DNA of 64,000 nt from a virus (lineage: Duplodnaviria > Heunggongvirae > Uroviricota > Caudoviricetes). Numbering within the stretch: position 1 is the first letter of the stretch; each line of letters begins with the position of its first letter. A program made the translations under genes and the position numbers. Below are positions 37 through 52,525 of this stretch, one piece after another. The stretch is taken from IMG/VR virus record IMGVR_UViG_2974716081_000001. One strand, given 5' to 3'. The notes under the pieces were generated by a model. That model made no database searches. It was not told where the DNA came from and worked only from the letters and a program-made list of their open reading frames with translations.

Positions 37-109
37 GATCAATTTACCTGTAAATCCATACAGTTCAATACCTTATCAGGTCAAATAGTGATCACTTGAT
101 CATTTGATC
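37..109. promoter_or_regulatory. cluster of four GATC (Dam) sites in the cre upstream region
   Basis: GATC at about 37, 90, 98 and 106 within ~75 bp; Dam-sensitive cre promoters are established for P1. Confidence 0.45.
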
Positions 110-435
110 AAGTTTGCGCTACGTAAAATCTGTGAAAAGTTGGCAGTGTTAGTGCTCCAGATTTCGCGTAGCGCACTTAGCACCACCAATCAATCAGAGG
201 TGAAAAATGGGATATTCAGCTGCTAAAGTGTCCACTCATCTTGAGCTTGAGAAAAACCGTGGTTACTGGCGGGCAAAAGGGTTTGATCGTGATAGTTGCC
301 AACTGTCATTATCGCGCGGTGAAGAGAAAATAGTACGCACGCGCGGTCGCTGGCGTTTCTATGGCGAGAACCATAAACAGGTAAAGGCAGAGCCGATCCT
401 GTACACTTTACTTAAAACCATTATCTGAGTGTTAA

Positions 436-1467
436 ATGTCTAATTTACTGACCGTACACCAAAATTTGCCTGCATTACCGGTCGATGCAACAAGTGATGA
501 GGTTCGCAAGAACCTGATGGACATGTTCAGGGATCGCCAGGCGTTTTCTGAGCATACCTGGAAAATGCTTCTGTCCGTTTGCCGGTCGTGGGCGGCATGG
601 TGCAAGTTGAATAACCGGAAGTGGTTTCCCGCAGAACCTGAAGATGTTCGCGATTATCTTCTATATCTTCAGGCGCGCGGTCTGGCAGTGAAAACTATCC
701 AGCAACATTTGGGCCAGCTAAATATGCTTCATCGTCGGTCCGGGCTGCCACGACCAAGTGACAGCAATGCTGTTTCACTGGTCATGCGACGGATCCGAAA
801 AGAAAACGTTGATGCCGGTGAGCGTGCAAAACAGGCGCTGGCGTTCGAACGCACTGATTTCGACCAGGTTCGTTCACTCATGGAAAATAGCGATCGCTGC
901 CAGGATATACGTAATCTGGCATTTCTGGGGATTGCTTATAACACCCTGTTACGTATAGCCGAAATTTCTAGGATCAGAGTTAAAGATATCTCACGTACTG
1001 ACGGTGGGAGAATGTTAATCCATATTGGCAGAACGAAAACGCTGGTTAGCACCGCTGGTGTAGAGAAGGCACTTAGTCTGGGGGTAACTAAACTGGTTGA
1101 GCGATGGATTTCTGTCTCTGGTGTGGCTGATGATCCGAATAACTACTTGTTTTGCCGTGTCAGAAAAAATGGTGTTGCCGCGCCATCTGCCACCAGCCAG
1201 CTATCAACTCGCGCCCTGGAAGGGATTTTTGAAGCAACTCACCGATTGATTTACGGGGCTAAGGATGACTCTGACCAGAGGTACCTGGCCTGGTCTGGAC
1301 ACAGTGCCCGTGTCGGAGCCGCGCGAGATATGGCCCGCGCCGGAGTTTCAATACCGGAGATCATGCAAGCTGGTGGCTGGACCAACGTAAATATTGTCAT
1401 GAACTATATCCGTAATCTGGATAGTGAAACGGGGGCAATGGTGCGCCTGCTGGAAGATGGTGATTAG
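436..1467 (+). CDS. cre: Cre site-specific tyrosine recombinase
   Basis: 343-aa ORF MSNLLTVHQNLPALPVDATSDEVRKNLMDMFRDRQAFSEHTWKMLLSVCRSWAAWCKLNNRKWFPAEPEDVRDYLLYLQARGLAVKTIQQHLGQLNMLHRR matches Cre as I recall it; ATG start; adjacent to loxP. Confidence 0.98.
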   Translation: MSNLLTVHQNLPALPVDATSDEVRKNLMDMFRDRQAFSEHTWKMLLSVCRSWAAWCKLNNRKWFPAEPEDVRDYLLYLQARGLAVKTIQQHLGQLNMLHRRSGLPRPSDSNAVSLVMRRIRKENVDAGERAKQALAFERTDFDQVRSLMENSDRCQDIRNLAFLGIAYNTLLRIAEISRIRVKDISRTDGGRMLIHIGRTKTLVSTAGVEKALSLGVTKLVERWISVSGVADDPNNYLFCRVRKNGVAAPSATSQLSTRALEGIFEATHRLIYGAKDDSDQRYLAWSGHSARVGAARDMARAGVSIPEIMQAGGWTNVNIVMNYIRNLDSETGAMVRLLEDGD

Positions 1468-2077: not shown

Positions 2078-2728
2078 ATGAAAACAATCGAACAAAAAAT
2101 TGAACAGTGCCGCAAGTGGCAGAAGGCAGCCAGAGAACGAGCGATCGCTCGGCAACGGGAGAAGTTGGCTGATCCGGCCTGGCGAGAATCTCAATATCAG
2201 AAAATGCGGAATACTATCGATCGCCGTATCGCTAAACAGAAAGAGCGCCCACCAGCCAGCAAAACGCGGAAAAGCGCGGTAAAAATAAAATCTCGTGACT
2301 TGAAGGGACGAACACCGACGGCGGAGGAACGGCGCATAGCCAATGCTCTTGGCGCTCTCCCCTGCATTGCCTGCTATATGCATGGAGTAATATCTGAAGA
2401 GGTGTCTCTGCACCATATCTCCGGTCGTACCGCGCCTGGTTGTCACAAAAAGCAATTGCCACTTTGTAGATGGCACCACCAGCATGCAGCACCGGCTGAA
2501 GTAAGAGAAAAATACCCCTGGCTGGTCCCTGTTCATGCCGATGGTGTGGTTGGAGGCAAGAAAGAATTCACCTTGCTGAACAAGTCAGAGATGGAGTTGC
2601 TGGCTGACGCCTATGAAAGGGGTCTGACGCTCAGTGGAACGAAAACTCACGTTAAGCAACGTTTTCTGCCTCTGACGCCTCTTTTAATGGTCTCAGATGT
2701 CCTTTGGTCACCAGTTCTGCCAGCGTGA
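2078..2728 (+). CDS. ref: Ref HNH endonuclease (recombination enhancement), last 6 codons replaced by a 37-aa read-through into the transposon inverted repeat
   Basis: Basic disordered N-terminus and HNH motif (CHKKQLPLCRWHHQH); removing the transposon restores an ORF of exactly 186 aa ending ...LLADAYEMANIMH. Confidence 0.85.
   Translation: MKTIEQKIEQCRKWQKAARERAIARQREKLADPAWRESQYQKMRNTIDRRIAKQKERPPASKTRKSAVKIKSRDLKGRTPTAEERRIANALGALPCIACYMHGVISEEVSLHHISGRTAPGCHKKQLPLCRWHHQHAAPAEVREKYPWLVPVHADGVVGGKKEFTLLNKSEMELLADAYERGLTLSGTKTHVKQRFLPLTPLLMVSDVLWSPVLPA
2614..2618. repeat. target-site duplication TGAAA (left copy)
   Basis: the same 5 bp directly flank both transposon inverted repeats. Confidence 0.8.
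2619..2656. repeat. Tn3-family left 38-bp terminal inverted repeat
   Basis: exact match to the canonical Tn3 inverted repeat. Confidence 0.9.
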
Positions 2729-5657
2729 AGGAATAATGGCCGAGCATATTGATATGTCCGTGGCAAAGCGGGGAGAGGCGTGCGATATCTTCATCATTCA
2801 GTGTTTCACCCTGCGCCCGGAGATGATCCAGGGCTGCCTGCATATAAATAGTGTTCCATAACACGACGGCGTTAGTGACCAGCCCCAGTGTGCCCAGTTG
2901 ATCTTCCTGACCGTCGGTATATCGTTTTCTTATCTCACCTTTTTGACCGTGACAGATGGCTCTGGCAACGGCATGGCGACTTTCTCCCCGATTAAGCTGG
3001 GTCAGAATGCGCCGGCGGTAATCTTCATCATCAATATAATTAAGCAGATACAGCGTTTTGTTGATGCGCCCCACTTCAATGATTGCCTGAGTCAGTCCGG
3101 AAGGACGTTCACTTTTCAGCAATGAACGGACCAGCACTGAAACCTGTACTTTGCCCAGCTTCAGGGAGCCAGCGGTCCGGATCATTTCGTCCCACTGAAG
3201 GACTATTTTTCGGGGATCTGATTGCCCTCTGGCAATATCATTCAGCACGCCATAGTCGGCATCATGGTCCATTCGCCAGAAAACCGAAGCACCGGCATCA
3301 GCCAGGCGTGGAGAAAACTGGTATCCCAGCAGCCAGAAAAGGCCAAAGACAAGTTCGCTGGCACCTGCTGTATCGGTCATAATTTCGGTTGGATTCAGCC
3401 CGGTCTCCTGTTCCAGAAGACCTTCCAGCACAAAGATAGAGTCCCTCAGCGTCCCCGGTATAACGATGCCATGAAAGCCGGAATACTGATCGGACACAAA
3501 GTTGTACCAGGTGATCCCTCTGTTATTACCAAAGTATTTGCGGTTCGGTCCGGCATTGATTGTTCTGACTGGCGTAACAAAGCGCATTCCATCTGCAGAT
3601 GCCACTTCTCCTCCACCCCATATCTGTGCCAGTGGCAGCGTTGCCTGAAAATCAACCAGTCTGGCATTAGCGCTGGTGATAGTTTCAGCCCGCAGATAGT
3701 TCGCTTTTGTCCAGTTCAGCCGGTGTCGGGTCAGTGCAGGAACATTTGATCTGATCAGTGGTTCCAGACCGATATTGCAGGCTTCAGCCATCAGCACGGC
3801 GCTGATGCTGACGGGCAGATCATCAACTCTGGCACTGGCTTCACTAGCATGGAAAAACTCATCAGCAAATCCGGTATGGGCGTTAATTTCGAGCAGCAAC
3901 TCCGTTAAATCCACCGGAGGGAGTAGATCACTGATCATTTTGCTCAGTCGTTTCAGACTGTCCGGCTCATCAAGACTGGCGAGGGGAGAAATTGTCAACC
4001 GGGGCTTCGGGCCAGAAACATCGAGTTCGACAGCCTCATTTTCGCAAAGACGTGCAGCAACCTGTCTGTAACGACTATCAAGCTGATGACCCAGAGATTT
4101 TATTGCTTCCTGCGGGTCTGTCGGGTGCCCCAAAGAACGATAAACCTTAATCCGGTTTGCCTGCCAGTCAGCACCCTGTAGTAATCTTGCACGAGGATCT
4201 CCCCACCGGTTACTGCCGGTAACGTAGACATCCCTCCGCCTCAGACTATCCTGCAGTTTACTGAGAAAGCAGAGCGTGTATCCCCTGCGGGTGATATGTT
4301 TTTCCTTGTTAATCACCAGCCGTTTCCATGACCGACTGATAATTTCCGTTGGTGCGTCGTCAAAAAACTGCCGCCGTGAGCTGAACTCCCGGCTGAGGTA
4401 GTCACAGGCATTCAGAGTGGTAACCCCGGCAGGTGCGGATGAAAATTTAACGGTATTCAGCAGATGGGGCAGGAAACGACGAACGCGCCCGTACTGCTCC
4501 ACCATTTCTTCATGAAAATTATCGTCTGAGGGCCGGGCAATTTCACGGACAAGCGTGATGATTTCAGCCAGCTTTTGCCTTGGGATGTAGCTGAACACCT
4601 CAGCACGAATCGATTCGTCCGGTGTTTCTTCTTTCAGCAGGTACGAACATGCGCTGGCGAGCGCCAATGCAGATTTATCCAGATCCTTCAGCGAGCGGAG
4701 CCGTTTTTTCTGCCCAATCTTTCTGGCGTCACGGATGATAACGGCCAGCATGGCGTCCAGAACGTCCAATGCATCATCCAGCGCCAGCGTTTCCCATGCA
4801 AGGACAAAGGCAACCAGAACCGCCATCCTTTTCTGCGGTGACATCCTGGCAATATTGAACACCGAAGTCATACCAGCATAACGTGCGAGATTTTTCAGGC
4901 GCACAGCCGGGAGTGTACTCAGGTTTTCAGCATGCAGGCCAAAATCGTTCAGAGTTTTCCAGCGTTCAATTGCTTCATTAAACGCCGGACCACTGATGGT
5001 CACAGGGCCCTTTTTCAGTGATTCCAGTAAAGACAGGCGGCTGCAATCAGTTGGCCCCAGCAGCATCTCCAGCTGTGAACGCTGTTCGGCTGACGGTATC
5101 AGTGCCAGTTTGTTCCACAGGCGCAACGTCGCCTTTTCCCTTACCTCTGAAATCAACCGGGTCAGCGTAGTGGCTCCGGGGAGAATAATACGATGTTGCA
5201 TAAGCCACCCTGTCGCCAGATCGAAAAGCAGGCCAGGACGTTCGTTGCTTATCCAGCTCCGGGTATATAAAAGACGGGTAAGGCGAAATGTCCAGGGCCA
5301 GGCAAATTCACGATACTGATAGTGCTGACGTATCAGCGCTGCATGCTCACGGCGGGTATTTTCCCTCTGACCGTATTCTGCAAGAACGGTGATATCACGA
5401 ATCCCGAGCTGTCTGGCGGTAAAATGCCGGACGCCGGAAGGAATATGATTCATATCGGTGAGGAAGGTGCCCAGAAAACGGACACATCCAATTTGCAGGG
5501 CAATGCCCAGACGGTTGTGATCACCTCTGCTTTTTCCGATAAATTCCTTGTCTGCTTCATCAAGGTGAAAATATCGTGCCAGCTGAAGCTCATCCGGTTC
5601 ACCGGTGAATCTGCCATAGCTTTCAGTCTGCTCAGTGGTCAGAAAGTCAACGGGCAT
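2652..5657 (-). CDS. tnpA: Tn3-family transposase TnpA (1001 aa)
   Basis: ORF contains MPVDFLTTEQTESYGRFTGEPDELQLARYFHLDEADKEFIG...; start set at the MPVDFLT methionine rather than the extended track start. Confidence 0.95.
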   Translation of the reverse strand: MPVDFLTTEQTESYGRFTGEPDELQLARYFHLDEADKEFIGKSRGDHNRLGIALQIGCVRFLGTFLTDMNHIPSGVRHFTARQLGIRDITVLAEYGQRENTRREHAALIRQHYQYREFAWPWTFRLTRLLYTRSWISNERPGLLFDLATGWLMQHRIILPGATTLTRLISEVREKATLRLWNKLALIPSAEQRSQLEMLLGPTDCSRLSLLESLKKGPVTISGPAFNEAIERWKTLNDFGLHAENLSTLPAVRLKNLARYAGMTSVFNIARMSPQKRMAVLVAFVLAWETLALDDALDVLDAMLAVIIRDARKIGQKKRLRSLKDLDKSALALASACSYLLKEETPDESIRAEVFSYIPRQKLAEIITLVREIARPSDDNFHEEMVEQYGRVRRFLPHLLNTVKFSSAPAGVTTLNACDYLSREFSSRRQFFDDAPTEIISRSWKRLVINKEKHITRRGYTLCFLSKLQDSLRRRDVYVTGSNRWGDPRARLLQGADWQANRIKVYRSLGHPTDPQEAIKSLGHQLDSRYRQVAARLCENEAVELDVSGPKPRLTISPLASLDEPDSLKRLSKMISDLLPPVDLTELLLEINAHTGFADEFFHASEASARVDDLPVSISAVLMAEACNIGLEPLIRSNVPALTRHRLNWTKANYLRAETITSANARLVDFQATLPLAQIWGGGEVASADGMRFVTPVRTINAGPNRKYFGNNRGITWYNFVSDQYSGFHGIVIPGTLRDSIFVLEGLLEQETGLNPTEIMTDTAGASELVFGLFWLLGYQFSPRLADAGASVFWRMDHDADYGVLNDIARGQSDPRKIVLQWDEMIRTAGSLKLGKVQVSVLVRSLLKSERPSGLTQAIIEVGRINKTLYLLNYIDDEDYRRRILTQLNRGESRHAVARAICHGQKGEIRKRYTDGQEDQLGTLGLVTNAVVLWNTIYMQAALDHLRAQGETLNDEDIARLSPLCHGHINMLGHYSFTLAELVTKGHLRPLKEASEAENVA

Positions 5658-6378
<721 letters not shown>

Positions 6379-6548
6379 TACGCCTATTTTTATAGGTTAA
6401 TGTCATGATAATAATGGTTTCTTAGACGTCAGGTGGCACTTTTCGGGGAAATGTGCGCGGAACCCCTATTTGTTTATTTTTCTAAATACATTCAAATATG
6501 TATCCGCTCATGAGACAATAACCCTGGTAAATGCTTCAATAATATTGA

Positions 6549-7421
<873 letters not shown>

Positions 7422-7530
7422 CTGTCAGACCAAGTTTACTCATATATACTTTAGATTGATTTAAAACTTCATTTTTAATTTAAAAGGATCTAGGTGAAGA
7501 TCCTTTTTGATAATCTCATGACCAAAATCC

Positions 7531-7568
7531 CTTAACGTGAGTTTTCGTTCCACTGAGCGTCAGACCCC
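7531..7568. repeat. Tn3-family right 38-bp terminal inverted repeat
   Basis: reverse complement of the left inverted repeat. Confidence 0.9.
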
Positions 7569-35366: not shown

Positions 35367-35505
35367 CTCGGTACCAGCGGTGAAAAGATCCCCCTGTTGA
35401 GCACGGCTAACACATGGAGTGCGCGCCAGACTTTCAACGGAGGGATCACCGGGGCACTGACAGGGAACGCCGACACCGCGACGAAATTGAAAACAGCACG
35501 CACTA
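35367..35505. repeat. left inverted repeat of the C segment
   Basis: near-identical in reverse complement to 39205-39347, with a few mismatches; encodes the shared [34 protein letters not shown] segment. Confidence 0.7.
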
Positions 35506-52448: not shown

Positions 52449-52525
52449 CAAAAGAAAAAAACCTGCCAGCAAACTGGCAGGTTTCTGAGCAGATCGCCCA
52501 ACCCGATCTGGATCGAGTCAGAAAA

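Follow-up and report, generated by a model that had tools for sequence, protein, structure and literature searches.

The cluster of GATC sites at the start of the window (the whole 64,000-nucleotide stretch of viral DNA that we analysed) lies in what is very probably the regulatory spacer between loxP and cra-cre in a P7-type P1 phage, where its members would be the known Dam sites that modulate cre transcription. That is, the cluster corresponds to the long-known Dam-sensitive control region between loxP and cre of P1 and P7. While regulation of cre by methylation is taken from the literature, the positions of the sites, their overlap with promoter hexamers and their non-random conservation are results of the present analysis.

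The window represents the genome of a P7-type P1 phage, its first base being the centre of loxP (the central A of lox). Over positions 1-1500, the identity is 100% with the P7 immC/cre entry AY751747 and 96.7% with P1 (AF234172 / NC_005856), whose numbering begins at the same base; over positions 1-440, the column identity with P1 is 99%. The encoded Cre is 100% identical to P7 Cre and 99.4% identical to P1 Cre. Judged by its position to the right of loxP and by identity, the region is the orthologue of P1 nt 1-435 and belongs to the P1-family loxP-cra-cre regulatory region. Its placement relative to loxP, cra and cre is the same as in P1. In the P1 RefSeq record, three GATC sites of this region (37-40, 98-101 and 106-109) bear the labels 'Dam methylation site 1/2/3 within the regulatory region of cre', and all three are found at the same coordinates in the window. 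The P7-type window differs from P1 by an extra GATC at 90-93 and therewith by three TGATCAnn units versus two. The features of the region are as follows:

1-17, no strand: right half of loxP, the same as P1 1-17, which is annotated as 'right half of recombination site lox'
37-40: GATC (Dam site 1), beginning 1 nt downstream of the P2coi -10 and 64 bp upstream of the pR1 -35
41-68, minus strand: P2coi promoter according to the P1 annotation, with -35 TTGAAC at 68-63, a 16-nt spacer and -10 TAAATT at 46-41
46-65: LexA box (CTGT-N8-ACAG) according to the P1 annotation
90-93: GATC in the first of three tandem 8-bp TGATCAnn units
96-101, plus strand: alternative pR1 -35 TTGATC according to the 1986 entry X03453, with a 22-nt spacer
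98-101: GATC (Dam site 2), within the alternative pR1 -35 at 96-101
104-129, plus strand: pR1 (= P3cre), a sigma-70 promoter according to P1 RefSeq, with -35 TTGATC at 104-109, a 14-nt spacer and -10 TAAAAT at 124-129
106-109: GATC (Dam site 3), within the pR1 -35 at 104-109; an invariant anchor
207-428, plus strand: cra (cre-associated ORF, 73 aa), from the ORF listing and the P1 annotation
283-312, plus strand: pR2 (= P2cre) according to P1 RefSeq and X03453, with -35 TTGATC at 283-288
285-288: GATC within the pR2 -35 at 283-288
395-398: GATC ending 2 bp before the pR3 -35
400-424, plus strand: pR3 (= P1cre) according to P1 RefSeq
436-1467, plus strand: cre (343 aa tyrosine recombinase), from the ORF listing and the identity to P7 and P1 Cre

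Further downstream, a Tn3-family transposon of 4,950 bp occupies positions 2619-7568. Its genes are tnpA (2652-5816, minus strand), tnpR and a bla gene of the TEM type (6561-7421), and its ends are perfect inverted repeats of 38 bp. It is flanked by a 5-bp target duplication (TGAAA) and sits near the 3' end of ref, a few codons short of the end of that gene. This bla transposon fits the ampicillin-resistance transposon of P7, an ampicillin-resistance relative of P1. Dam is present in enterobacterial hosts. When we searched the window for a phage Dam homologue (dmt) by its DPPY motif, the sole match was a type III mod gene, and the phage dmt gene therefore lies outside the window.

The sequence-only reading had counted four GATC sites within about 75 bp, and this count holds: sites at 37-40, 90-93, 98-101 and 106-109 make 4 in 73 bp. 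All four are TGATCA hexamers, and the last three are spaced by exactly 8 bp. Two more GATC sites (285-288 and 395-398) fall within cra and within the interval 37-435. The cluster is the sole span of at most 100 bp with four GATC in the 64-kb window and holds the tightest three-GATC span of the window (20 bp). Yet its plain density is not beyond chance in a scan-wide comparison (P about 0.5). The whole window is slightly GATC-rich (281 sites observed versus 250 expected), and with uniform placement of 281 sites in 64 kb a 3-in-20-bp cluster arose somewhere in 45% of the simulations and a 4-in-73-bp cluster in 58%. Density thus leaves room for the view that the GATC of this AT-rich spacer came together by chance and serve no function, a view to which we nevertheless give next to no probability. 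In the pre-specified 189-bp spacer from lox to cra, 4 GATC stand against 0.83 expected (Poisson P=0.01), and a first-order Markov model trained on this spacer itself gives P=0.003, an excess that is modest but real, the spacer-specific tests being partly post hoc. TGATCA accounts for only 28 hexamers in the window, or 10% of its GATC sites, and the clustering of this hexamer is clearly non-random at P about 1e-4 (three within 16 bp, P=6e-4; four within 69 bp, P=1.3e-4), in a test that is likewise partly post hoc because the hexamer was picked after the data had been seen.

Two other GATC features of the window deserve mention in their own right. Positions 35448-38906 comprise 3,459 bp without any GATC, whereas 10-13 would be expected from composition. 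This stretch coincides with the Cin-invertible C segment, which carries the variable parts of the tail-fibre genes S and U and which is shared with phage D6 at about 90% identity, with weaker matches to Yersinia and P2-like (Peduovirus) phage records. Its composition suggests either GATC avoidance or a foreign origin of a mobile tail-fibre cassette. The second-tightest GATC triple of the window (3 sites in 23 bp, 52492-52514) directly follows a strong terminator-like hairpin (AAAAAAACCTGCCAGCAAACTGGCAGGTTTCT) and precedes a C1-operator-like sequence (ATTTGCTCTAATAAATTT) by about 15 bp. It may be another methylation-sensitive control region.

Two sites of the cluster, 98 and 106, are not only close to the distal cre promoter pR1 but lie inside it. 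The promoter hexamers of pR1, pR2, pR3 and P2coi and the LexA box are identical between the window and P1, and GATC overlaps a core hexamer of a promoter mapped in the literature at 96-101, 104-109 and 283-288. The proposed nearness of the cluster to the cre promoters is borne out by the P1 and X03453 annotations, which place sites 98 and 106 within the two alternative -35 hexamers of pR1. A strict scan of positions 1-600 for sigma-70 consensus promoters and terminators found nothing. Such a scan misses these promoters because the pR1 spacer measures 14 or 22 nt and P2coi has only 8/12 consensus matches; a permissive promoter scan recovered both pR1 and P2coi. On the minus strand, a perfect TATAAT is found at 3-8, within the lox spacer and right arm, with only weak -35 partners. 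It is kept in all lineages because lox is conserved.

In addition, the region downstream of the cluster contains an 18-nt imperfect inverted repeat (115-132 / 158-175; arms 89% complementary, 25-nt loop) that is unannotated in the P1 record and encloses the -10 of pR1 together with the early transcribed region. The predicted fold of its RNA is -31 kcal/mol (z=-3.4). Among P1-like relatives the arms are almost invariant and the loop is variable. The arm cores (GCTACG / CGTAGCGCA) are also kept in a Salmonella arizonae plasmid and in Cronobacter phage JK004, and phage D6 has a TTCGCGTAGCG motif. No clear compensatory changes were found, so the repeat may serve as a binding site for a protein or form a structure in RNA or DNA.

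Conservation among close relatives was analysed in 85 P1-like loci (viral contigs, genomes and GenBank entries) by counting the exact hexamer of the window at each site; a few of the loci do not cover every site. Site 106 was invariant (kept in 84 of 84 loci). Site 98 was kept in 80/84, and the other four loci showed a clean deletion of one 8-bp unit. The remaining sites were less uniform, with 74/84 for site 90, 73/83 for site 37, 67/84 for site 285 and 71/84 for site 395. P1 is among the minority without site 90: it reads GACC at 90-93 instead of GATC (T92 in the window, C in P1) and therefore has two tandem TGATCAnn units where the window has three. Given that site 90 is kept in 74/84, three units are the usual state and the allele of laboratory P1 is a minority one.

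Two more diverged lineages extend this comparison, namely the S. arizonae plasmid CP053320 (control region at 760-1000 of locus L097) and Cronobacter phage JK004 (1349-1585 of locus L096, reverse complement), whose Cre is 79% identical. Outside lox, pairwise identity among the lox-proximal spacers of P7, the S. arizonae plasmid and JK004 amounts to only 47-52%. Counted from the centre of lox, GATC sites are found at these positions:

P7 (window): 37, 90, 98, 106
P1: 37, 98, 106
S. arizonae plasmid: 37, 90, 106 (98 is not kept)
JK004: 28, 36, 104, 111

In a four-way alignment, the invariant blocks were the half-site of lox, TGATCAA at site 37 (continuous with the LexA box), (A)TTGATCA at site 106, the cores of the inverted repeat (GCTACG... 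/ ...CGTAGCGCA) and, shortly before the Shine-Dalgarno sequence, CCAATCAATCA (186-196). Two anchors (37 and 106) are thus invariant and are accompanied by one or two sites that turn over at 8, 16 or 7 bp from the anchor. On comparative grounds, this argues for selection for several methylatable sites and disfavours a rigid protein operator. It also bears on the chance view: sites 37 and 106 are invariant across three lineages whose spacers are about 50% identical, 106 has been retained in every close relative covering it, all four sites are TGATCA in spite of the rarity of this hexamer among GATC sites, and published work reports regulation by methylation. Conservation in particular effectively refutes chance.

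The diverged lineages show little conservation of the pR1 -10: S. arizonae reads CAAAAT, and JK004 offers nothing convincing. In both, extra genes separate the control region from cra-cre: JK004 has a 356-aa ORF there, and the S. arizonae plasmid some 1.3 kb. It is thus lox, not cre, that the region accompanies. The S. arizonae lox has a variant spacer (ATAACTTCGTATAACACACATTATACGAAGTTAT) and may, judging by this difference, be heterospecific with loxP. Beyond these lineages the cluster disappears. In phage D6, whose Dre is 41% identical to Cre, no GATC was found between rox and dre. A Pantoea alvi locus with cra and cre (Cre 65% identical) lacks both a GATC cluster and a lox-like site within 2 kb; its nearest GATC are two single sites, some 400 and 500 bp upstream of cre. 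The cluster is therefore not general to Cre-family loci, and its conservation ends at about 80% Cre identity. A tblastn search with JK004 Cre among plasmids revealed no closer relatives of JK004.

The two anchors probably serve different promoters. Site 37 may not act on cre, because it is situated 64 bp upstream of the pR1 -35 and adjoins the -10 of the leftward promoter P2coi. The layout of P2coi (-35, 16-nt spacer with LexA box, -10) is kept in all three lineages, and its hexamers differ between them (TTGAAC/TAAATT, TTTACC/TATTAT and TTGCGA/TATATT). From this arrangement, site 37 more probably modulates the LexA/SOS-controlled transcript that crosses lox toward coi rather than cre.

Several known systems resemble the cluster in part. 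Dam-sensitive sigma-70 promoters with GATC in a hexamer include IS10 transposase pIN, dnaA P2, trpR and sulA. What the cre region has in common with them is GATC in a core hexamer (here the -35 TTGATC), with methylation altering promoter strength and coupling expression to replication. In contrast to these promoters, the cre region has tandem sites, two to three overlapping alternative -35 hexamers and an additional site at a divergent LexA-controlled promoter. To our knowledge, strand-specific effects of hemimethylation as in IS10 have not been described for cre. A second likeness exists within the same phage. The pac site of P1 and P7 reportedly consists of seven TGATCA/G hexamers, the methylation of which is said to be needed for pacase cleavage (attributed to Sternberg & Coulby 1990). 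In the P7 record (locus L095, pac at 431-612), we located TGATC[AG] at 431, 438, 450 and 465 and again at 561, 573 and 584. Pac and the cre cluster thus share TGATCA in a closely spaced array, and pac function is Dam-dependent. Pac differs in that two arrays (4+3) surround a cleavage region of about 90 bp within pacA, whereas the cre cluster is a single intergenic promoter array, i.e. one array of three hexamers plus one isolated hexamer, and so falls outside the definition of pac. We know of no cleavage function of the cre GATC cluster. Finally, phage Mu mom has three GATC in 43 bp, according to the passage on it in PMC7549136, and mom, agn43 and pap all resemble the cluster in having three GATC close together (a few tens of bp) in front of a gene. 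These systems need a regulator site (OxyR or Lrp) overlapping the GATCs, whereas the cre GATCs overlap the -35 itself; no OxyR/Lrp-type regulator site was identified at the cre cluster.

Taken as Dam sites in promoters, the sites would act directly on transcription. N6-methyladenine on both strands in the major groove of the -35 would weaken recognition by RNA polymerase (sigma-70 region 4). pR1, and perhaps pR2, would be low on fully methylated prophage DNA, and pR1 would be more active on unmethylated sites or during their transient hemimethylation right behind the replication fork. Cre would thereby be supplied in a pulse at a time when dimers of sister plasmids may have to be resolved, a post-replication timing that we infer. 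Site 37, in the discriminator of the LexA-controlled P2coi, would most likely form a second unit. The activity of pR1 is said to be about 3-4 fold higher in dam- hosts. Comparison of cre expression in dam+ and dam- hosts, the experiment that would address the proposed control, has reportedly been published already (Sternberg et al. 1986, "...regulation by DNA methylation"). PMC7549136 states methylation control of cre secondhand, citing Lobocka et al.; the same passages state that the P1 Dam enzyme acts in the lytic stage and that P1 packaging depends on seven methylated GATC in pac. The sequence-only reading had suggested methylation-sensitive control of the recombinase either after replication or on entry. 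Methylation-sensitive control itself agrees with the P1 annotation and the literature. The variant on entry is weak. Cleavage at pac requires methylated GATC, so P1 DNA should be methylated by the time it has been packaged, which makes such a role less likely.

Two other modes of action were weighed against this direct effect of the methyl groups. SeqA needs two or more hemimethylated GATC. It might bind the cluster after replication and transiently occlude pR1 and P2coi or lox, which would fit the presence of several GATC within 20 bp as well as the retention of at least two clustered sites by the relatives in spite of their shifting positions (8, 16 and 7 bp apart), as expected under selection for multiplicity. 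Sites on different helical faces are poor for SeqA dimers, and the spacings observed (8 and 16 bp in P7, 7 bp in JK004, 16 bp in S. arizonae) keep the sites near one another without helical phasing, those of 7-8 bp placing them on different faces. Occlusion by SeqA moreover predicts repression after replication, the opposite of the classical model, and we regard it as improbable.

Even less probable, in our estimation, is that the TGATCA array is the site of a protein that competes with Dam methylation or needs it, such as PacA (pacase) or an OxyR/Lrp-type factor. The conserved unit is TGATCA and not bare GATC: all 8 of the 8 clustered sites in P7 and JK004 have this form, compared with a tenth of the GATC sites in the window, and in the 6.7-kb P7 record pac is the only other TGATC[AG] array. 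Something more than recognition by Dam may thus constrain the sequence, but the 5' T is also explicable by the TTGA of the -35, and TGATCA is self-complementary. Furthermore, there is one array only, not two arms around a cleavage region as in pac. ACTTGATCA-TT-TGATCAAGT is a perfect 9-nt palindrome and was considered as a dimer operator; it was rejected, since its flanks and the 8-bp spacing are kept neither in JK004 (7 bp) nor in the S. arizonae plasmid (16 bp). The idea of an ArgR/PepA accessory site was also set aside, the proposed Arg-box lying on the far side of loxP (P1 nt 94669), outside the window. According to the literature, ArgR fails to bind this proposed Arg-box, and accessory factors had no effect on Cre recombination in vitro with a 601-bp lox fragment in which this GATC cluster is included.

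The direct effect of Dam methylation on the -35 hexamers hence remains our preferred reading, and as a discovery its value is small, as Dam control of cre has been in the literature since 1986 and forms part of the annotation of the reference genome. New are the allele frequencies, the conservation pattern of anchors plus turnover and the probable link between site 37 and P2coi, which by themselves raise no new question. A wider proposal, which we consider unlikely although less so than SeqA occlusion, is that the lox-proximal spacer is a conserved bidirectional methylation-sensing module. It would comprise the invariant TGATCA in the P2coi discriminator and in the pR1 -35, neighbouring sites that turn over and the inverted repeat at 115-175, perhaps with a TGATCA-reading protein as at pac. 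If true, both prophage induction (through the anti-repressor coi) and the supply of Cre would be tied to the state of replication or methylation. The comparative details are useful for revisiting the timing of Cre and Coi expression in P1-type phage-plasmids.
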